Below are positions 1-10,610 of a stretch of 10,610 bases of DNA, piece by piece. A program made the translations under genes and the position numbers. Each line of letters starts with the position of its first letter. The first letter of the stretch is position 1. The DNA lies in IMG/VR virus record IMGVR_UViG_2778261697_000001. The stretch is one strand, 5' to 3'. The notes below the pieces were generated by a model. The model ran no database searches. It was not told the origin of the DNA and saw only the letters and a list, made by a program, of their open reading frames with translations. The DNA is from a virus. Lineage: Duplodnaviria; Heunggongvirae; Uroviricota; Caudoviricetes.

Positions 1-132
1 GTCCATTTCCGCGCAGACGATGACGTCACTGCCCGGCTGTATGCGCGAGGTTACCGACTGCGGCCTGAGTTTTTTAAGTGACGTAAAATCGTGTTGAGGC
101 CAACGCCCATAATGCGGGCAGTTGCCCGGCAT
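1..132 (-). CDS. insB: IS1 InsB, 5' part only (continues beyond the window edge)
   Basis: Mirror image of 10479-10610. It reads [44 protein letters not shown] in the -1 frame relative to insA and is open to the window edge. Confidence 0.8.
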
Positions 133-326
133 CCAACGCCATTCATGGCCATATCAATGATTTTCTGGTGCGTACCGGGTTGAGAAGCGGTGTAAGTGAA
201 CTGCAGTTGCCATGTTTTACGGCAGTGAGAGCAGAGATAGCGCTGATGTCCGGCGGTGCTTTTGCCGTTACGCACCACCCCGTCAGTAGCTGAACAGGAG
301 GGACAGCTGATAGAAACAGAAGCCAC
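51..326 (-). CDS. insA: IS1 InsA (transposition inhibitor / N-terminal part of the InsAB' transposase)
   Basis: 91-aa [43 protein letters not shown]... with the characteristic Cys-rich zinc-finger start; identical to the ORF at 10285-10560. Confidence 0.95.
69..77 (-). promoter_or_regulatory. IS1 programmed -1 ribosomal frameshift motif (A6C slippery site) joining insA to insB'
   Basis: Plus strand reads GTTTTTTAA here, i.e. TTAAAAAAC on the coding strand near the 3' end of insA. That this motif drives InsAB' frameshifting is established IS1 biology. Confidence 0.7.
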
Positions 327-359
327 TGGAGCACCTCAAAAACACCATCATACACTAAA

Positions 360-692
360 TCAGTAAGTTGGCAGCATCACCGCTGGCATGAATTCATTTT
401 CAGTTCTGAATTTAATAATTATAGAGTCAGTAAAGTCCTTATCAATGGATTGTACGATACCTCTAACGGCGATTAATTTACCTTTTAACTGTTCATCGGT
501 AGCGACTTCATTTTCTTCATACTCTTTAAACAGCTGTCGAGCAGTAGTGTTGTAGATTTCTTTTTGCGGTGCCGCAGCTTCCGTATCGGATGAGTATGAA
601 GAATTAGAGCCTTTATCGTTATTGCCTGCAAAATATCCAATAATCACCAACCCGATGAAAATATATAAAATCCATTTTAATAATTTCTTCAT
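360..692 (-). CDS. Membrane-anchored OB-fold protein (tRNA_anti-like / BOF-like family), 3' end replaced by IS1 sequence
   Basis: N-terminal Lys-rich start followed by a hydrophobic helix (MKKLLKWILYIFIGLVIIGYFAG). C-terminal YEENEVATDEQLKGKLIAVRGIVQSI resembles the OB-fold tRNA_anti-like family, assigned from memory. The last 6 codons and the TGA stop (360-380) lie inside the IS1 terminal repeat, so the native C-terminus is missing. AT-rich, unlike the adjacent tail operon. Confidence 0.55.
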   Translation of the reverse strand: MKKLLKWILYIFIGLVIIGYFAGNNDKGSNSSYSSDTEAAAPQKEIYNTTARQLFKEYEENEVATDEQLKGKLIAVRGIVQSIDKDFTDSIIIKFRTENEFMPAVMLPTY

Positions 693-754: not shown

Positions 755-2131
755 ATGGCATTACCAGTAAATATTACTACTGATAATAAATATGGGACTT
801 ATATGACGTGGAAAGACAGGCTTCAGGATGCGTCATTTCGCGGCGTACCGTTTAAAGTTGAAGAAGAAAGTGCGGGAACCGGTCGCCGTGTGGAAACACA
901 CGAATACCCGAACCGCGACAAGCCCTATACTGAAGATCTGGGAAAAGTCACTTTCCGCCCGTCCATCACGGCTTATGTGGTGGGAGATGACTGCTTTGAC
1001 CAGCGCGATCGCCTGATTGATGCGCTGAATAAACCCGGTCCCGGCACGCTTGTCCATCCGACATACGGTGAGCTGAAAGTCTGTGTTGACGGGGAAGTTC
1101 GGGTCAGCACATCGAAAAGTGAAGGGCGTATTGTCCGCTTTGACCTGAAGTTTGTCGAAGCGGGAGAACTCTCTTACCCCACATCAGGTGCGGCGACGGC
1201 GCAGACGCTGATGTCATCCTGTTTTGCACTGGATGACTGCATCAGTGGCAGCTTCAGCGGTTTCAGTATCGATGGCGTGGCGGATTTCGTGCAGAACGAC
1301 GTTATCGGTAATGCCGGCACAATGCTGGGGTATGTTTCTGATGCGATGAAAGTGGTGGATTCTGCTGTATCGGATGCCGCCAGGCTGTTGCAGGGAGATA
1401 TTTCGGTACTTCTGCCGCCGCCATCGTCAGGCAAAAATTTCGTTGAGCAGGTGCAGAAAATGTGGCGTACCGGGAAGCGCCTTTATGGTAACGCCAGCGA
1501 CCTGGTCACCATGATCAAAACGCTTTCCGGTGTCAGCCTCGGCAGCGATCTGCAACCGCGCGGTGTCTGGAAAACGGACAGTAAAACCACCGCCACGGCA
1601 ACGCAGCAGCGTAACGTGGTTGCCAGCACCCTTCGTACGACCGCAATCAGCGAAGCGGCGTATGCCGTCACCCGGCTGCCTGCACCAACAACTTCCGCAG
1701 TGATGCAGAATTCCGCAGTGGGGCAGTCAACAACCCCCGCGCAGAGCACCGGCTGGCCTTCCGTCACGCATCCGGCACTGAACAATGCACCGGCGGTGAA
1801 AAACACGGTTGACCTGCCAACGTGGGAAGAACTGACCGACATTCGCGACACACTGAATACGGCAATTGAGAAGGAGTTGTCCCGTACAACCAGTGATGCG
1901 CTGTTTCTGGCGCTGCGCCGGGTGAAAGCAGATCTGAATGCGGATATCAACACGCGCCTTGAACAGTCTGCACGGATCATTCAGCGCACACCGGATGAGG
2001 TTTTACCCGCGCTGGTGCTGGCGGCGACCTGGTTTGATAACGCGGCGCGTGACGCGGACATTATCCGGCGTAATGCCATTACGCATCCCGGCTTTGTGCC
2101 GGTGATCCCTCTGAAGGTGCCAGTGCAATGA
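755..2131 (+). CDS. Mu gpN-like DNA circularisation protein (tail/baseplate module)
   Basis: 458-aa ORF. The N-terminal WKDRLQDASFRGVPFKVEEESAGTGRRVETHEYPNRDKPYTEDLG block matches the DNA_circ_N-type domain of Mu N homologues as I recall it, followed by a Ser/Thr/Ala/Pro-rich linker. The first 16 codons are AT-rich with no Shine-Dalgarno sequence, so the real start may be the ATG at 803 (MTWKDRL...). The stop overlaps the next start (ATGA at 2128-2131). Confidence 0.75.
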   Translation: MALPVNITTDNKYGTYMTWKDRLQDASFRGVPFKVEEESAGTGRRVETHEYPNRDKPYTEDLGKVTFRPSITAYVVGDDCFDQRDRLIDALNKPGPGTLVHPTYGELKVCVDGEVRVSTSKSEGRIVRFDLKFVEAGELSYPTSGAATAQTLMSSCFALDDCISGSFSGFSIDGVADFVQNDVIGNAGTMLGYVSDAMKVVDSAVSDAARLLQGDISVLLPPPSSGKNFVEQVQKMWRTGKRLYGNASDLVTMIKTLSGVSLGSDLQPRGVWKTDSKTTATATQQRNVVASTLRTTAISEAAYAVTRLPAPTTSAVMQNSAVGQSTTPAQSTGWPSVTHPALNNAPAVKNTVDLPTWEELTDIRDTLNTAIEKELSRTTSDALFLALRRVKADLNADINTRLEQSARIIQRTPDEVLPALVLAATWFDNAARDADIIRRNAITHPGFVPVIPLKVPVQ

Positions 2132-3207
2132 ACGATAACGTCACGCTACGGGTAAATGGCCGGGAGTGGAATGGCTGGACATCGGTGCGCATCGGTGCCG
2201 GTATTGAACGGCTGGCGCGGGATTTCAGTGTGGAGATCACCCGCCAGTGGCCGGGAGATGAGGGTATCACCACGCTTCAGCCGCGCATTAAAAACGGTTC
2301 AAAAGTGGAAGTGCTGATTGGTGATGAGCTGGTGATCACCGGCTGGGTGGAGGCGACTCCCGTTCGTTACGATGCCCGTTCGATCAGCACCGGTATTGCC
2401 GGACGCAGTCTGACCGCTGACCTGATTGACTGTGCAGCCGAACCGACACAGTTTAACGGACGATCGCTGGTACAGATTGCGCAGGCGCTTGCAGCGCCTT
2501 TCGGCATTGAGGTGGTGAACAGCGGCGCGCCGTCGGGTGTTATTCCTGATGTCCAGCCTGATCACGGCGAAACGGTGATTGAGGTGATCAACAAAATACT
2601 CGGTCAGCAGCAGGCACTGGCTTACGACGACCCGCACGGCAGGCTGGTGATTGGCGGTATTGGCTCAACGCGGGCACATACCGCGCTGGTACTCGGGGAA
2701 AACATCCTTTCCTGCGATACGGAGAAGAGTATCCGGGAGCGGTTTTCAGTTTACCAGGTGGCGGGGCAGCGTGCCGGAAACGACGATGATTTCGGTGAGG
2801 CTACCACCACCGCGCTGCGGGCCCGCACAGAGGACGCATTTATTGCCCGTTACCGTCCGATGTATATCAGGCAGACAGGGCAGGCTACGGGGGCAGGCTG
2901 TATTGCCCGTGCTGACTTTGAAGCCCGACAACGGGCGGCACGGACGGATGAAACCACCTATGTGGTGCAGGGCTGGCGACAGGGTAACGGTACGCTGTGG
3001 CAGCCCAACCAGCGGGTGATTGTCTTCGATCCGGTCTGTGGTTTCGATAATACCGAACTGCTTGTTTCGGAAGTCACGTTTACTCAGGACCAGAACGGCA
3101 CCCTGACGGAAATCCGTGTCGGCCCGCCTGATGCTTATCTGCCTGAACCCGAAGCCCCCGGCGCGCGGAAAAAGAAAAAAGCCAGAGTACAGGAGGACCC
3201 GTTCTGA
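2128..3207 (+). CDS. Mu gpP / gp44-like baseplate hub protein (phage late control gene D family)
   Basis: 359-aa ORF in conserved Mu-like order between the gpN-like and gpV-like genes. Start is coupled to the upstream stop; AAGGTG lies upstream. GC-rich phage-type codon usage. Family assigned from position and general sequence character. Confidence 0.7.
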   Translation: MNDNVTLRVNGREWNGWTSVRIGAGIERLARDFSVEITRQWPGDEGITTLQPRIKNGSKVEVLIGDELVITGWVEATPVRYDARSISTGIAGRSLTADLIDCAAEPTQFNGRSLVQIAQALAAPFGIEVVNSGAPSGVIPDVQPDHGETVIEVINKILGQQQALAYDDPHGRLVIGGIGSTRAHTALVLGENILSCDTEKSIRERFSVYQVAGQRAGNDDDFGEATTTALRARTEDAFIARYRPMYIRQTGQATGAGCIARADFEARQRAARTDETTYVVQGWRQGNGTLWQPNQRVIVFDPVCGFDNTELLVSEVTFTQDQNGTLTEIRVGPPDAYLPEPEAPGARKKKKARVQEDPF

Positions 3208-3755
3208 TGAGGACGATTGAAGCCATGCAGCGACAACTCCTCGGCCTGATTGGGCGGGCCGTGGTGAAAAGCATCAGTGCCGCCACGAAATGTCAGACCG
3301 TGGATGTGTCCCTGATTGCCGGTGAACCCAAAGCCGGGGTTGAGCATCTTGAACCCTACGGTTTTACCGCAAGGGCAAACAGCGGTGCAGAAGCGGTGGT
3401 GTTGTTTCCGGATGGCGACCGTTCTCATGCGGTAGTTGTTACGGTGTCGGACCGGCGCTACCGCCTGAAAGGGCTGCAGACGGGTGAGGTGGCTGTCTAT
3501 GACGATCAGGGGCAGTCCGTGATGCTGACCCGGGAGGGGATCGTGGTGGACGGTGCAGGTAAAACGATCACGTTTCGCAATGCACCTGAAGCACGTTTTG
3601 AAATGGACCTTGAAGTGACCGGACAGGTGAAAGACCTGTGCGACTCCGGCGGCACCACCATGTCAGCGATGCGGCTTGCTTATAACGGGCATCGTCACAG
3701 AGAGAACGGTCAGGGCAGTAACACCGACAAACCTGATAAAGCGATGGAGGCATGA
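3207..3755 (+). CDS. Baseplate assembly protein V / Mu gp45-like spike
   Basis: 182-aa ORF with the pattern LEPYGFTARANSGAEAVVLFPDGDRSHAVVV typical of the gpV family (from memory). Strong Shine-Dalgarno AGGAGGA at 3191-3197. Start overlaps the upstream stop (TGATG). Confidence 0.75.
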   Translation: MRTIEAMQRQLLGLIGRAVVKSISAATKCQTVDVSLIAGEPKAGVEHLEPYGFTARANSGAEAVVLFPDGDRSHAVVVTVSDRRYRLKGLQTGEVAVYDDQGQSVMLTREGIVVDGAGKTITFRNAPEARFEMDLEVTGQVKDLCDSGGTTMSAMRLAYNGHRHRENGQGSNTDKPDKAMEA

Positions 3756-4180
3756 TGGAACTGTGGCTGACGGTGAACGGTAAACGCACCTGCGCCAGCG
3801 CACCGCTGGATCCGCTGACCCGCGCCGTGGTGATTTCCCTGTTCACCTGGCGGCGGGCGGAGCCTGATGACAATGCCGACGTCCCGATGGGATGGTGGGG
3901 GGATACCTGGCCTGCGGTACAGAATGACCGTTACGGCTCCCGACTGTGGCTGCTTCAGCGCAGCAAACTGACCAATCAGCTGGTGCAGACGGTAAGGGGG
4001 TATATCCGCGAATGCCTGCAATGGATGATTGATGACGGCGTGGTGTCCCGTATTGATCTGGATATCCGCCGCACCGGGATTAATGAACTGGGTAACAGTA
4101 TCACTCTCTGGCGTCGTGACGGACCGGTAATGATTTCTTTTGATGATCTGTGGAGTGCGATAACGCATGGCGGACAGTGA
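3752..4180 (+). CDS. Mu gp46-like baseplate protein
   Basis: 142-aa ORF of the size and position of Mu gp46. GGAGG at 3746-3750; the second ATG at 3755 has the better spacing and may be the true start. Overlaps the stop of the gp45-like gene. Confidence 0.7.
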   Translation: MMELWLTVNGKRTCASAPLDPLTRAVVISLFTWRRAEPDDNADVPMGWWGDTWPAVQNDRYGSRLWLLQRSKLTNQLVQTVRGYIRECLQWMIDDGVVSRIDLDIRRTGINELGNSITLWRRDGPVMISFDDLWSAITHGGQ

Positions 4181-5225
4181 ATTTCAGCGCCCGACGCTGG
4201 CAGAAAATATCAGTATGCTCCGTAACGATTTATTCGCCAGGCTGGACGTCAGCGACACGCTCCGGCGCATGGATGAAGACGTGCGGGCAAAGGTGTATGC
4301 GGCGGCGCTGCATACGGTTTACGGGTACATCGATTATCTGGCAATGAATATGCTGCCTGACCTGTGCGATGAGTCCTGGCTGGCGCGACATGCTGCGATG
4401 AAACGGTGTCCGCGCAAGGGGGCCACGGCTGCCAGCGGGTATATGCGCTGGGAAGGTGTCAGCGATGGCCTGAAGGTGACTGCCGGGAGCGTGATTCAGC
4501 GCGATGACCTGGTTCAGTACACGGCAACTGCCGATGCAACCAGCTCCGGTGGTGTCCTGCGTGTGCCGATCACTTGCTCAACTACAGGCGCGGTCGGTAA
4601 CGCTGACGACGGTACGGCATTAATCCTGGTCACGCCGGTGAATGGTCTGCCGTCTTCCGGTGTGGCTGACACCCTGACAGGCGGATTTGATACTGAAGAG
4701 CTGGAAACGTGGCGCGCCCGCGTCATTGAGCGGTATTACTGGACGCCTCAGGGCGGGGCTGACGGGGACTATGTCGTCTGGGCTAAAGAAGTGCCCGGCA
4801 TTACCCGCGCATGGACATACCGACACTGGATGGGAACGGGGACTGTCGGTGTGATGATTGCCAGCAGTGACCTGATTAATCCCATTCCGGAAGAGTCAAC
4901 GGAAACGGCGGCAAGACAACATATCGAGCCACTGGCCCCGGTGGCAGGCTCTGATTTGTATGTATTCAGGCCGGTGGCGCATAAAGTGGATTTTCATATC
5001 CGCGTGACGCCGGACACACCGGAAATACGGGCTGCCATCACCGCGGAGTTGCGTTCGTTCTTGCTGCGTGATGGTTATCCGCAGGGAGAACTGAAGGTGT
5101 CGCGTATCAGTGAGGCGATTTCCGGTGCGAACGGGGAATACAGCCATCAGTTGCTTGCACCGGCGGACAATATCTCCATTGCAAAAAATGAACTGGCGGT
5201 ACTGGGGACGATTTCATGGACGTGA
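4167..5225 (+). CDS. Baseplate J-like protein (Mu gp47-like)
   Basis: 352-aa ORF in the expected position after the gp46-like gene, overlapping it by 14 nt. Size and order fit the baseplate J family. Confidence 0.75.
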
Positions 5226-5800
5226 CAAACGATGATTACATCCGTCTGTTGTCGGCACTGTTGCCCCCCGGTCCGGCGTGGTCAGCCAGCGATCCGGCGA
5301 TTGCCGGTGCGGCACCGTCATTAACCCGCGTTCATCAGCGTGCGGATGCCCTGATGCGGGAGCTGGATCCGCGCACCACCACTGAACTGATAAACCGCTG
5401 GGAGCGTCTGTGCGGTCTGCCGGATGAATGTATTCCCGCAGGGACACAGACCCTTCGCCAGCGTCAGCAACGGCTGGATGCGAAGGTTAACCTGGCGGGC
5501 GGCATCAATGAGGATTTTTACCTTGCGCAGCTTGCTGCCCTGGGTAGACCAGATGCCACCATCACGCGATACGACAAAAGCACGTTCACCTGCTCATCGG
5601 CTTGTACTGACGAGGTGAATGCGCCGGAATGGCGGTATTACTGGCAGGTCAATATGCCAGCTGCCACCAACACCACCTGGATGACATGTGGCGATCCCTG
5701 CGATTCCGCACTGCGTATCTGGGGGGACACCGTTATCGAGTGCGTGCTTAACAAACTCTGCCCGTCGCATACCTACGTAATTTTTAAATATCCGGAGTAA
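5216..5800 (+). CDS. Mu gp48-like tail protein (YmfQ-like, DUF2313-type)
   Basis: 194-aa ORF overlapping the baseplate J gene by 10 nt. Length and position match gp48/YmfQ-type proteins that precede tail-fibre genes. Confidence 0.7.
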
Positions 5801-5803
5801 TCC

Positions 5804-6730
5804 ATGCATCGTATAGACACGAAAACCGCGCAAAAGGATAAGTTCGGCGCGGGTAAGAACGGTTTTACCCGTGGTAACCCCCAGACAGGCACGCCTGCCA
5901 CCGATCTGGATGATGACTACTTTGACATGTTGCAGGAAGAGCTCTGCAGCGTGGTGGAGGCATCCGGTGCCAGCCTGGAGAAGGGGCGGCATGACCAGCT
6001 GCTTACCGCGCTTCGTGCGCTGCTGTTAAGTCGCAAAAATCCGTTTGGCGATATCAAATCGGACGGCACGGTGAAAACGGCTCTTCAAAACCTTGGTTTG
6101 GGAGATACAAGCGGATACGTGGGACGCTGGGTGAATACCCGGGTTTTCACGTCATCAGGTACGTACACCCCGACGCCAGGAACAAAACGGATCAGGGTCA
6201 CAATAACGGGCGGCGGTGGCGGAGGGGGCGGCTGCAAGGCTATATCCAATAATGAAACGTTTTTCGGTGCTGGCGGCGGGGCAGGTGGGACAGTAATCAC
6301 CACGCTGATCCTGACGAAGGATAGTTATCCTGTCACTATCGGCGCAGGTGGGGCCGGCGGCGTTAGTGCGACGAACGGCTTCAAGGGCGGTGATAGCTCG
6401 TTCGGATCGGTAATAGCCCCTGGTGGTGAAGGTGGTGGAAAATCAGGAGTCACAAACACGAACGGTGGTAACGGCGGTGTGCCAAGTACTGGCGGTATCA
6501 ACATCATTGGTGGAAATGGAGGCGACGGTCAGTCCGGAAATATCGGCGTCAGCGGTGAAGGCGGAACATCGTACTGGGGGGGCGGTGGACGCGCAGGCGC
6601 TGGCGGTGGTGTTAGTGGTAAGGCATATGGTTCAGGTGGCGGTGGCGCATACGATGCCGGTTATAGCGGAACCAGTATGACAGGCGGGAAAGGTGCTGCT
6701 GGGGTTTGTATTATCGAGGAGTTTGCATAA
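5804..6730 (+). CDS. Tail fibre protein with conserved N-terminal anchor domain and glycine-rich C-terminal repeat domain
   Basis: 308-aa ORF. N-terminus [53 protein letters not shown] is the conserved prophage tail-fibre N-terminal domain (from memory). From about residue 140 the C-terminus is dominated by GGxGG repeats. GGAG Shine-Dalgarno 6 nt upstream. Confidence 0.8.
6190..6700 (+). repeat. Degenerate GGN-rich coding repeats (glycine-rich domain of the tail fibre)
   Basis: Direct reading shows runs such as ggcggcggtggcggagggggcggctgc and ggcgcaggtggggccggcggcgtt. The complementary strand yields artefactual Pro-rich ORFs. Confidence 0.6.
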
Positions 6731-7146
6731 TGAATGCGTCATATGCAGTTATTGAAAATGGGATGGTTGTGAATGTCATTGTCTGGGATGGCGAGGATGA
6801 ATTCACTGTGCCGGATAATCTGCAGCTCATTAATATTTCTGATATCAGTGAGCAGCCCGGAATTGGCTGGGCGTATTCAGACGGGGTATTTACTGCGCCG
6901 CTCCCTCCGGAACGTTCTCATGATGAACTGGTAGCTGACGCTGAACAGAAAAAACAGTCGCTGATAGACGCAGCAATGGCCAATATCAGCGTGATTCAGT
7001 TAAAGCTGCAGGCCGGGCGCAAACTGACGCAAGAAGAAACTACCCGACTTAACGTTGTGCTGGATTATATCGAGGCTGTGACGGCAACAGATACCAGCAT
7101 TGCACCGGATATTGAGTGGCCGGATGAACCGTGCTTCGCTGAATAA
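6730..7146 (+). CDS. Tail fibre assembly protein (Tfa chaperone)
   Basis: The C-terminus TATDTSIAPDIEWPDEPCFAE matches the conserved Tfa C-terminal motif (lambda Tfa ends ...TSTAPDIEWP...). ATG at 6730 overlaps the tail-fibre stop and has GAGGAG 8 nt upstream. The ORF track start at 6706 is probably an upstream extension. Confidence 0.8.
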   Translation: MNASYAVIENGMVVNVIVWDGEDEFTVPDNLQLINISDISEQPGIGWAYSDGVFTAPLPPERSHDELVADAEQKKQSLIDAAMANISVIQLKLQAGRKLTQEETTRLNVVLDYIEAVTATDTSIAPDIEWPDEPCFAE

Positions 7147-7223
7147 AATCTGTTGAGGAGAAGCGGTTTAATTGTAACTCAATTCTTTTTGTGTAATAAA
7201 AGTAGGACAAAACTGTGACACAT

Positions 7224-7251
7224 AAAGCCTCGCAATGGTTTGCAAGGCTTT
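7224..7251. terminator. Candidate bidirectional intrinsic terminator between convergent tfa and acyltransferase genes
   Basis: AAAGCCTCGCAA-TGGT-TTGCAAGGCTTT: 12-bp arms with one mismatch and a 4-nt loop, with A/T tracts at both ends so a U-run follows the stem in either direction. Confidence 0.35.
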
Positions 7252-7352
7252 GAACGCTTCTATATTGAGGATGTGACGCGGTTTCGTTTATTTCCATTCT
7301 ATATATTGATGTCGATTTTTATGAATATAGAGCATACGGATAAACTGCAGTG

Positions 7353-7389
7353 TGATTAGAGTCAAAGTAATAGTTGTTGACTCTAATCA
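7353..7389. repeat. Perfect AT-rich palindrome immediately 3' of the acyltransferase gene
   Basis: GATTAGAGTCAA (7354-7365) and TTGACTCTAATC (7377-7388) are exact reverse complements separated by 11 nt; the flanking t/a extends pairing to 13 bp. No U-tract follows on either strand. Confidence 0.4.
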
Positions 7390-7406
7390 TTGCAAAGTGA
7401 CTTTAC

Positions 7407-8474
7407 TTAATGAAATTTATCTCGGATGAATTGTTGCGATGGCTTTTCAATGAATATATATGACATATAGCTAATTGCCATTAATGTAAGCATGAATAAA
7501 ATGAATACCTTGGGGCTGTAAAAAAGATCGCGTCCATAGCCAATCTTGTCAGCTAAATAAACAACAATGATTTGCAAAGGAAAATGTAAAAGATAGGATG
7601 AATAACTGATATCACCCAACCATTCAATTTTTTCCCCAAAATCGTTTCGTATTGCGCTAATTGACACAAGGAAAAAGATTATGGAGGTAAATCCGAATAA
7701 GATAATTGAGAATATATCTGCTACTTGCAGGGTAAAGATAACTCCCCATGAGATCAATAGAAAAACACAAGCAAAAATAAAAAATAACTTTGCGCTAATA
7801 TTTTTTATGACAGCAATCGTAATTTTATAGGTCAGACCACCAATAAAGAAAGAGAATGCGCCGATCATTATGGGATTGTTAATTTTGAAAAAGTAGTACG
7901 ACAATGCAACTATTAAAATTGATATGAATGTTGTTTTTGATGTGAACTTGCATAATATAAAAAATATCATGTACATAAGTACTTCAATCGACACGGACCA
8001 TGTCGGGGCGTTGAAGGACCAACCTCGCTCAAATCCCCATGATTGAATCATCAATAAATTCAGAATGGCATGGTAAATGTCATTCATAGGATAAACAAAA
8101 AAATAATTATGACTTTTAAAGAAAATAATTTGTAATATTGCCACGACAGCAAATGTAAATATATAAAGTGGATATAATCTACTGACACGGTTAACTATAA
8201 AAGTTTTTGCTGAGGTTTTATTGCTGTGTATATTGTCAGCGTATAGATAAAAAAATATGAATCCAGAAATCATAAAAAACAATTCGACAGCATATAAACC
8301 GTAATGATAAAAGACGGAAAAAAAATCATAAAAAGGTTGGCGGTTTATGATTATGTCAGATGCAGCATTCTTTTTCATAAAAAAATGTTGCCAATGCCAT
8401 AACACAACGGAAAGTGCGGCAAATCCTCTCAGAACATCCAGGGTATATATTCTCTTCCCAAAAACATTCGTCAC
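7407..8474 (-). CDS. Acyltransferase family 3 integral membrane protein (OafA/Oac-like; putative O-antigen or surface polysaccharide acetyltransferase)
   Basis: 355-aa ORF with the hallmark N-terminal motif LDVLRGFAALSVVLWH and the RLYPLY motif, and many hydrophobic helices. GTG start with AAGAGG 7 nt upstream. Very AT-rich (about 22-33% GC on sampled lines, against about 57% in the tail genes). Confidence 0.85.
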   Translation of the reverse strand: MTNVFGKRIYTLDVLRGFAALSVVLWHWQHFFMKKNAASDIIINRQPFYDFFSVFYHYGLYAVELFFMISGFIFFYLYADNIHSNKTSAKTFIVNRVSRLYPLYIFTFAVVAILQIIFFKSHNYFFVYPMNDIYHAILNLLMIQSWGFERGWSFNAPTWSVSIEVLMYMIFFILCKFTSKTTFISILIVALSYYFFKINNPIMIGAFSFFIGGLTYKITIAVIKNISAKLFFIFACVFLLISWGVIFTLQVADIFSIILFGFTSIIFFLVSISAIRNDFGEKIEWLGDISYSSYLLHFPLQIIVVYLADKIGYGRDLFYSPKVFILFMLTLMAISYMSYIFIEKPSQQFIRDKFH

Positions 8475-8970
8475 AACGAACCTCTTTTAATAAAGTCAAG
8501 TGATAATGAAAGATAAATATTGTAAACGAAAAAATACTGGACTGGAACATATATCTCTGCCTGTAATTTAACCAAGATAATTTTACTAACGCAGTCATAA
8601 TTCGTTCATGTATACCAGATGAAAGTACATGTTCTATGAAATAGGGTTTTGCCTAGAGTTTGAAGGTTTTTAACGATTATACCTGTTTAATCGACTCCCC
8701 ATGTTTTTTGACATTATCCACCGCACACGATACTGGATGCCAGGTAAACTGATTTGCTGGCATAAAGTCACTGAGAATTTTTTACCAACAATATCTTGCC
8801 ACATCTTTTCCCGTACAGTTTCGGCAATAGAATCAGCGGGCAGCGGTCATCAATATTCACCAGACATTGATCTGCCGCACTATCTGACCGGTGTCCTGCT
8901 GAGAATACTAATTTCTTTTTTTTGCAAGTGCTGTCCAATCATGATTGGGGGGGGCTGGCGGAGTTGAAAA

Positions 8971-9025: not shown

Positions 9026-9895
<870 letters not shown>

Positions 9896-9990
9896 CTAAC
9901 CCTTTGAATTTACATAGCGCAAAAAGATACCTTTCCTCATAATGTGAGCTAATTTTATGTTTCGTTTGATGATCGGGTCGGTCTCGAAAC

Positions 9991-10024
9991 CCGTAGCCAC
10001 GTCGTATGCAAGAACGTGCTACGG
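9991..10024 (-). repeat. Stem-loop B, copy 2 of the hairpin repeat, upstream of the GIY-YIG gene
   Basis: GTAG-c-CACGT-[cgtatgcaaga]-ACGTG-CTAC with two flanking C-G pairs. Homologous to stem-loop A; the outer stem carries a compensatory C-G to T-A change. Confidence 0.4.
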
Positions 10025-10284
10025 TTAGCTGGTGAAATGTCGATAGTGCGAGTGTTGAATAATTTCTAGCCGTTATTGATTTTACGTATTTTTGTATGAG
10101 ATGATTTGCATCTCCTGCCACCGACCATCTATGACTATACGTCACCATTTCTAGGGCTGCTATGTGCCAAGAGCGGTAATTGACAGAGAGCAGCCCTATC
10201 TCAGTGGCTTTATTTTTTTAGAGATTGCAGGTGATGCTGCCAACTTACTGATTTAGTGTATGATGGTGTTTTTGAGGTGCTCCA

Positions 10285-10560
10285 GTGGCTTCTGTTTCTA
10301 TCAGCTGTCCCTCCTGTTCAGCTACTGACGGGGTGGTGCGTAACGGCAAAAGCACCGCCGGACATCAGCGCTATCTCTGCTCTCACTGCCGTAAAACATG
10401 GCAACTGCAGTTCACTTACACCGCTTCTCAACCCGGTACGCACCAGAAAATCATTGATATGGCCATGAATGGCGTTGGATGCCGGGCAACTGCCCGCATT
10501 ATGGGCGTTGGCCTCAACACGATTTTACGTCACTTAAAAAACTCAGGCCGCAGTCGGTAA
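10285..10560 (+). CDS. insA: IS1 InsA
   Basis: 91-aa ORF identical to the copy at 51-326. Confidence 0.95.
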
Positions 10561-10610
10561 CCTCGCGCATACAGCCGGGCAGTGACGTCATCGTCTGCGC
10601 GGAAATGGAC
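10479..10610 (+). CDS. insB: IS1 InsB, 5' part only (continues beyond the window end)
   Basis: ATG at 10479 opens the frame [44 protein letters not shown], which matches the InsB N-terminus as I recall it and is open to the window edge. Confidence 0.8.
10534..10542 (+). promoter_or_regulatory. IS1 programmed -1 ribosomal frameshift motif (TTAAAAAAC)
   Basis: A6C slippery sequence near the 3' end of insA, in the overlap with the insB frame. Confidence 0.7.

Follow-up and report, generated by a model that had tools for sequence, protein, structure and literature searches.

A putative surface-glycan acyltransferase gene carried as mobile phage cargo beside the tail-fiber genes of an Escherichia coli prophage remnant

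What does a membrane acyltransferase gene do next to the tail-fiber genes of a temperate phage? The question is raised by a gene on the minus strand of a 10,610-nucleotide (nt) stretch of viral DNA, IMG/VR record IMGVR_UViG_2778261697_000001, hereafter called the window. A sequence-only reading of the window had pointed to this gene as phage cargo of the Oac/OafA type, low in guanine plus cytosine (GC) and a candidate for surface modification or superinfection exclusion. Our analysis indicates that its product, an intact stand-alone protein of the acyltransferase-3 (AT3) family, probably acts in lysogenic conversion by O-acetylating a surface glycan, most likely the O-antigen of lipopolysaccharide (LPS). 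The subfamily to which the protein belongs is new and uncharacterized, while the biology itself is known: phage AT3 acetyltransferases beside a tail fiber have been familiar since Oac of phage Sf6.

The acyltransferase gene and its product

The open reading frame (ORF) at 7407–8474 comprises 1,068 nt, corresponding to 355 codons and a product of 355 amino acids (aa), and starts with GTG. RefSeq contains the identical coding sequence in E. coli EJN001, annotated as an 'acyltransferase family protein' (WP_100774581.1). The sequence-only reading had noted the GTG codon and a good Shine-Dalgarno sequence in front of it. Both were confirmed: the motif AAGAGG (8486–8481), the GTG codon and the N-terminus of the protein are kept in the orthologue from Citrobacter freundii, and the alignments of homologues begin at residue 1. 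The gene is also convergent with the tail-fiber assembly gene tfa, as had been stated; tfa lies on the plus strand (6706 or 6763 to 7146), and the two genes are 260 bp apart.

The GC content of the ORF is 32.2% (34% at third codon positions), compared with 56.7% in the tail operon (755–7146), a contrast far beyond chance. The low value reported previously against a tail operon of about 57% is thus correct, though the range of 22–33% given for sampled lines had its upper bound set slightly too low, since lines of 60 nt vary from 23 to 42%.

The product belongs to the family Acyl_transf_3 (PF01757) with an E-value of 1.7e-24 and 86.9 bits (cut-off 31), residues 10–334 covering positions 2–320 of the 326 positions of the profile. 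It matches PHROG 3333 'O-acetyltransferase' (E 1.7e-40) and, weakly, PHROG 6705 'O-antigen acetylase' (E 8e-8), while searches of the NCBIfam models, the PADLOC models and the PDB sequences with the protein gave no match. No second Pfam domain was found, and the C-terminus at residue 355 lies just past the tenth transmembrane helix (TMH), so that the architecture is AT3-only.

Two motifs are known to be essential in AT3 proteins, R-X10-H in TMH1 (Arg14/His25 in OafB) and RXXR at the cytoplasmic face of TMH3 (PMC9833829). Both were revealed in the acyltransferase, as R16-GFAALSVVLW-H27 and R96-V-S-R99, and in an alignment of 58 homologues R16, H27 and both arginines of the second motif are invariant. 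The same is true for F66, F67, S70 and G71 of an FFxxSGF motif at 66–72 (F66-F67-M-I-S70-G71-F72). An AlphaFold model built on this alignment reached a predicted local distance difference test score (pLDDT) of 90.2 and a predicted template modeling score (pTM) of 0.89; it has ten long, transmembrane helices and a long loop between TMH3 and TMH4, as in the AT3 fold, and its only stretch of low confidence lies within the loop 123–157. The strong structural matches of the model in the PDB are restricted to human HGSNAT and yeast GWT1, which are solved transmembrane acyl-CoA-dependent acyltransferases. These eukaryotic enzymes differ from the phage protein in having extra domains and different acceptors, and their identity to it is only 12–14%.

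The ratio of nonsynonymous to synonymous substitutions (dN/dS), calculated against the Citrobacter orthologue, is 0.15–0.18. The ORF is intact at 50 of the 52 places where it occurs in complete E. coli genomes, and a single residue distinguishes the protein of the window from its counterpart in an intact prophage. Shortened alleles of 163–307 aa do occur in the protein cluster; the allele in the window is full-length. Taken together, the family match, the motifs, the fold and the dN/dS values point to an intact AT3 enzyme under purifying selection, with predicted acyl-transfer activity.

A cassette in the slot between tfa and the integrase gene

The window is 100% identical to a part of the E. 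coli EJN001 chromosome, where what is left of the phage is a 9.85-kb remnant flanked by two inverted copies of IS1A. The two copies (769 bp each, 100% identical to each other) occupy positions 12464–13232 and 23081–23849 of the EJN001 locus, in which the window begins at 12852. The integrase, regulation, head and most tail genes are missing from the remnant. The gene copy in the window sits, then, in an IS1-truncated prophage remnant and not in an intact prophage.

Intact carriers were found elsewhere. A complete SfV/e14-like myovirus, present in strain AH02 as a circular record of 43,680 bp (NZ_CP081704.1), contains the acyltransferase gene with 97% nucleotide identity in the order tfa, AT3 gene, PD-T4-3 gene, Dcm methylase and type II endonuclease genes, DinI gene, integrase gene and a dusA fragment. 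The intact prophage of strain a15 has the order tfa, AT3 gene, PD-T4-3 gene, SIR2 gene and integrase gene. Fourteen IMG/VR viral contigs contain the gene with at least 96% identity, mostly within a few kb of the contig end, and in complete E. coli genomes it is present in 49 out of 5,426 (about 1%). The earlier view of an AT3 gene carried as temperate-phage cargo close to the tail fiber is borne out by these records.

It should be mentioned that the 43.7-kb 'plasmids' of strains AH02 (NZ_CP081704.1) and CT01 (NZ_CP081794.1) are complete circular genomes of the same phage, and that both strains also hold a chromosomal copy of it. The coexistence of circular and chromosomal copies points to a phage that excises spontaneously or replicates in culture. 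Among the carrier strains, NCTC11129 belongs to sequence type 155 (ST155), according to a literature look-up of the strain names.

Two sister prophages, L014 and L015, do not contain the acyltransferase gene, and their homology to the window is interrupted around it (Table 1). In the C. freundii prophage, the stretch 7207–8593 is the only one with 85.6% nucleotide identity to the window, compared with only 72% for the tail genes. Upstream of the acyltransferase gene the similarity between E. coli and Citrobacter ends beyond about 120–130 bp. Downstream, two hairpins follow the stop codon, and both are kept in Citrobacter: in hairpin 1 a compensatory A>G / T>C change preserves the pairing, and hairpin 2 has there, on the acyltransferase strand, a GCCTTGC/GCAAGGC stem with TTTTT behind it. 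A strict and simple terminator scan called neither of the two hairpins.

Table 1. Coordinates of the acyltransferase cassette and of other features in the window
Feature	Position	Strand	Description and basis
Mobile cassette	7207–8593	-	About 1.39 kb: upstream region, ORF and hairpins; 85.6% nucleotide identity to C. freundii prophage
AT3-only membrane acyltransferase gene	7407–8474	-	355 aa; GTG 8474–8472, TAA 7409–7407
Shine-Dalgarno sequence AAGAGG	8481–8486	-	6 nt 5' of GTG; sequence reading; same in C. freundii and E. coli AH02
Conserved upstream region	8475–8593	-	120–130 bp common to E. coli and Citrobacter; own promoter presumed (inferred)
Hairpin 1	7353–7389	-	Perfect 13-bp stem, 11-nt loop, 17 nt past the stop codon; repeat search
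Hairpin 2	7224–7251		Arms of 12 nt and loop of 4 nt; resembles an intrinsic terminator on either strand; lies between tfa and acyltransferase gene; repeat search
Variable segment	7111–8964		Relative to sister prophages without the acyltransferase gene; homology to L014 and L015 ends at 7110 and resumes at 8965
Tail-fiber gene	5804–6730	+	StfP-like N-terminus, glycine-rich C-terminus; Pfam Gly_rich_2, PHROG tail-fiber families
Tail-fiber assembly gene tfa	6706–7146	+	Convergent with acyltransferase gene; Pfam Caudo_TAP, PHROG tail-fiber families
PD-T4-3 anti-phage defense gene	9026–9850 (RefSeq start 9799)	-	GIY-YIG nuclease, next gene upstream; PADLOC PDLC04031 (E 1.1e-139), Pfam LEM-3_GIY-YIG
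Left IS1A copy, inner end	1–381	-	Cuts off the prophage
Right IS1A copy, inner end	10230–10610	+	Cuts off the prophage

Morons, that is insertions missing from close relatives and deviating in GC content, are equipped with their own terminator. The insertion is missing from L014 and L015, it contrasts in composition with the adjoining operon (32% versus 57% GC), and the two hairpins stand downstream of its stop codon. Judged from the insertion pattern, the deviant GC content and the conserved upstream region and hairpins, the cassette is built like such a moron, a small self-contained unit in the tfa-to-integrase slot with a presumed promoter of its own.

In the sister prophages an inverted tfa stub fills the slot, with or without a ClpP-like gene and the remnant of a pin-like recombinase gene. 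These remains (L014, 12806–12886; L015, 12314–13564, comprising the inverted tfa stub, the ClpP-like gene and the broken pin-like gene) look like relics of an invertible tail-fiber switch of the kind known from e14 and Mu, and it seems that the cassette has taken the place of this switch. It was also noticed that a 60-bp element at 7193–7251, including the terminator-like hairpin, recurs with 90% identity close to the integrase gene of another prophage (L014, 15465–15524); this element might serve as a reusable terminator or mark the boundary of a module.

Function and acceptor of the predicted enzyme

To get insight into the possible acceptor, we compared the protein with characterized enzymes and analyzed the surroundings of its relatives. 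The closest known parallels are the proven O-antigen acetylases of Sf6 (Oac, or OacA) and of the E. coli O157 phage phiV10. They belong to the same Pfam family and to PHROG 3333, have no SGNH domain, contain both R-X10-H and RXXR and are of similar size (333–338 aa versus 355 aa). Their genes have the same layout as well, being temperate-phage cargo, convergent with and directly 3' of the tail-spike or tail-fiber gene. Like the Oac-type enzymes, the acyltransferase is AT3-only, and its gene lies in a temperate phage next to a receptor-binding gene and is transcribed against the late operon. The carriers differ: an SfV/e14-like myovirus here, a P22-like or epsilon15-like podovirus in the case of Sf6 and phiV10.

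OafA and OafB (GtrC family II) of Salmonella share with the acyltransferase the AT3 domain and its essential motifs; unlike them, the acyltransferase is devoid of the eleventh helix and of the periplasmic SGNH domain, and neither the window nor the intact phage encodes an SGNH partner. OafB resides on prophage BTP1, and O-antigen acetylation by it shields against phage (PMC9558356). The sequence-only assignment to the Oac/OafA type therefore holds at the level of the AT3 superfamily but goes too far in detail, since there is no significant match to the Oac proteins of Sf6 and phiV10 and no SGNH domain as in OafA.

As to the phage itself, it resembles SfV and other serotype-converting myoviruses of Shigella and E. 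coli, which we take to share Mu-like baseplate genes gp44–48, a fiber gene with tfa, a cargo slot and int. In the SfV-type phages gtrABV lies between the tail-fiber genes and attP-int. Unlike in SfV, the cargo here consists of an acetyltransferase gene and defense genes instead of a glucosylation operon, and integration is apparently at dusA, a fragment of which is found next to int.

Relatives with 43% identity over the full length come from Pseudomonas syringae/savastanoi and Xanthomonas albilineans and belong to the same subfamily, in which the motifs WHWQHFF, NAPxWSVS and SYSSYLLHFP are invariant. Their genes differ from the phage-borne one in being chromosomal, high in GC and part of a biosynthetic cluster. 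Neither to our knowledge nor according to the searches made has any of these subfamily members been characterized biochemically. Two of them, P0035 of P. savastanoi and P0058 of X. albilineans, are located within O-polysaccharide clusters that contain genes for Wzm/Wzt (with a Wzt_C domain), a double-GT4 glycosyltransferase, Rml proteins and a terminal methyltransferase, a composition typical of ABC-transporter-dependent (rhamnan-type) O-polysaccharide synthesis. In total 80 species-level loci were surveyed; at least two classes of O-polysaccharide markers were found within 10 kb in 24 of them, and one locus is a prophage. Another homologue, P0079, was considered as a possible counterpart of P. 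aeruginosa PA5458, a putative acetyltransferase modifying the common polysaccharide antigen (CPA; PMC3560663), and was rejected on the basis of its context, being an unrelated stand-alone Pseudomonas gene.

The enterobacterial relatives are surrounded differently. Eight of the 10 sampled (46–85% identity) adjoin genes of tail fibers, tail spikes or baseplates, and at least four tail types are involved: SfV/Mu-like in E. coli, Citrobacter, Klebsiella aerogenes, K. variicola and Serratia quinivorans, E217-like in S. marcescens, a P2-like remnant in S. plymuthica, and a fiber with an S74 chaperone domain in another enterobacterium. In a neighbor-joining tree, built without bootstrap, the enterobacterial members form one clade apart from the members located in O-polysaccharide clusters. 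The sequence-only reading had named as a refuting result that the closest homologues are housekeeping peptidoglycan or other acyltransferases unrelated to surface polysaccharide; wherever the context is informative, it consists of O-polysaccharide clusters or of receptor-binding genes of prophages, which speaks for that reading. It was also observed that in S. marcescens (L008, 7031–11703) and K. aerogenes (L010, 1893–9646) the acyltransferase gene lies inside the fiber module, between a gp53-like baseplate gene and large fiber or beta-helix spike genes, and not after the module as in E. coli.

We favor the O-antigen as the acceptor because members of the subfamily occur in O-polysaccharide clusters, because the phage-borne members have tail genes as neighbors and because the layout is that of Sf6 and phiV10. 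By analogy with other AT3 proteins, the acyl group, most likely acetyl, would be drawn from cytoplasmic acyl-coenzyme A (acyl-CoA). Conserved arginines would hold the CoA phosphate, R16, R96 and R99 lining the central pore, and H27, placed near the periplasmic face, would catalyze the transfer to a hydroxyl of a lipid-linked surface glycan in the periplasm, most likely the LPS O-antigen. If the gene is expressed in the lysogen, the cell may show an altered surface epitope, with a change in serology and in phage adsorption, and the masked receptor would amount to superinfection exclusion in the broad sense.

Were the enzyme active, about 1% of sequenced E. coli (49/5,426) would possess an unrecorded O-acyl decoration that is invisible to genotype-based O/K typing and can alter antibody recognition and the susceptibility to therapeutic phages. 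The value of this is incremental: a new subfamily with a clear set of candidates is added to a concept that was established long ago.

Several observations weigh against this proposal. The similarity of the acyltransferase to Oac of Sf6 and Oac of phiV10 is not significant (blastp, E 0.02–0.05), for which reason the idea that it is an orthologue of either was discarded, and WecH, the best of the four characterized proteins tried, gives only a local match (E 1e-6 over 69 residues). As there is no close characterized relative, the acceptor is deduced from the genomic context. Even here 49 of the 80 surveyed loci showed neither the polysaccharide nor the phage markers used, a count which is uninformative given the small marker set, and the Kluyvera orthologue (58% identity) is a stand-alone chromosomal gene. 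The glycine-rich tip of the fiber gives no hint of its receptor specificity, so that masking of its own receptor is unsupported for this phage. Finally, prophage acetyltransferases of Klebsiella have been discussed as capsule modifiers and linked to K-loci (PMC13123978), and a scan for the sigma-70 consensus upstream of the acyltransferase gene revealed no strong match.

The distance to the known enzymes must be seen against their own diversity. No significant similarity to OpgC was found; a profile of the subfamily gave a score of 18 bits with Sf6 Oac and a negative one with phiV10 Oac, and the latter two are themselves barely similar (E 0.002). Since Sf6 Oac, phiV10 Oac, WecH and OpgC are equally remote from one another, sequence distance says nothing about the acceptor. 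In a tblastn search of 50,697 phage records nothing exceeded 38% identity to the acyltransferase, and Sf6, SfII and Sf101 were not among the matches listed.

That the same mechanism is directed to another envelope glycan, such as capsule (K antigen), colanic acid, enterobacterial common antigen (ECA), LPS core or periplasmic glucans, is a possibility to be taken seriously, though not the probable one. AT3-only proteins acylate many different glycans (PMC9558356), the local match to WecH would fit ECA, prophage acetyltransferases have been linked to K-loci (PMC13123978), and the relatives from K. aerogenes and K. variicola adjoin beta-helix depolymerase-type spikes, commonly capsule-targeting in that genus. 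A widely common acceptor would also suit carriage by 49 E. coli genomes of varied sources. However, the genes accompanying the in-cluster members of the subfamily (Wzm/Wzt with Wzt_C, Rml, terminal methyltransferase) are those of O-polysaccharide and not of capsule or ECA synthesis, E. coli already possesses wecH and opgC as core genes encoding very different proteins, and no NCBIfam family model matched the acyltransferase. A gene that is merely an inert passenger in this genome, silent or deprived of a suitable acceptor in a dead IS1-truncated remnant, seems unlikely. Such a fate would agree with the position of the copy between two IS1 elements and with the lack of a consensus promoter; moreover, AT3 O-antigen acetylases are acceptor-specific, which makes a mismatch with the host O-type plausible (PMC9558356). 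But the ORF, the Shine-Dalgarno sequence, the 120–130 bp upstream and both hairpins are intact, the protein shows only the single-residue difference from the intact-prophage copy, the cassette has flanking signals of its own, independent of phage late transcription, and the lineage is under purifying selection, with the window allele not being among the shortened ones.

It is highly improbable that the acyltransferase is an intracellular component of a defense system, together with PD-T4-3 or the adjacent SIR2 or restriction-modification genes, instead of a surface modifier. The idea arises from the location in a prophage defense hotspot, with PD-T4-3 as the next gene on the same strand and, beyond it, a SIR2-family gene in strain a15 or the type II pair (Dcm methylase and endonuclease) in AH02. 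PD-T4-3, however, has been described as a system of one gene, which showed defense activity when cloned alone (10.1101/2024.12.20.629700). It occurs without the acyltransferase gene in L014 and L015, just as in Citrobacter, Serratia and Klebsiella the acyltransferase gene is present and PD-T4-3 is not, and since the two genes are found independently of each other a partnership was rejected. A gap of 551 bp and the separately conserved upstream region lie between them, and no PADLOC model corresponds to the acyltransferase. O-acetylation of a surface glycan, probably the O-antigen, thus remains our preferred explanation.

A broader and rather doubtful extension of it concerns the enterobacterial branch as a whole. 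It may represent a small mobile cassette that moves along with the receptor-binding genes of unrelated tails (Mu/SfV-like, E217-like, P2-like and S74-chaperone fibers) or has been recruited next to them again and again, each enzyme masking the glycan that its neighbor binds. If this were true, fiber or spike plus acetyltransferase would form a transferable 'bind-and-mask' module usable for the prediction of phage receptors. In a variant of this idea most E. coli would share the acceptor glycan (ECA or LPS core), resulting in exclusion independent of the O-type.

Neighboring genes and borders of the remnant

With AT3, PD-T4-3, SIR2 and restriction-modification genes among its contents, the slot from tfa to int in this phage family is a variable hotspot for defense and surface modification. 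On the other side of the slot, the tail-fiber gene (5804–6730) is one unbroken ORF of 308 aa, which RefSeq splits into an 'stfP pseudogene' and a 'glycine-rich domain' gene. The C-terminal two-thirds of the fiber are extremely glycine-rich, and a PDB sequence search with it gave only marginal matches to the Pam3 fiber (E ~0.8).

The two IS1A copies bordering the remnant are inverted and identical, and an IS1 composite transposon was considered. No target-site duplication was found at the copies, either outside or inside, and this arrangement was rejected. The remnant is more likely to stem from an IS1-mediated deletion or rearrangement than from the segment having transposed as one unit. The remnant adjoins rclC, while the intact phage appears to integrate at dusA instead. 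The right IS1 junction lies about 20 bp inside the 3' end of the SIR2 gene known from strain a15.

Two unannotated ORFs flank PD-T4-3, one of 88 aa at 8701–8967 on the plus strand and one of 95 aa at 9861–10148 on the minus strand. Neither matched anything in NCBIfam, PHROGs or PADLOC, and both are probably non-coding. Close to the left border, the minus strand contains at 360–692 a gene for a small OB-fold lipoprotein that matches PHROG 8545 'superinfection exclusion Sie-like' (E 7e-33). Its product is 110 aa long here and 148 aa in intact prophages, since the left IS1 removes the 3' end of the gene. With a GC content of 36% and a position between the tape-measure and DNA-circularization genes, on the opposite strand, this Sie-like gene looks like a second moron.

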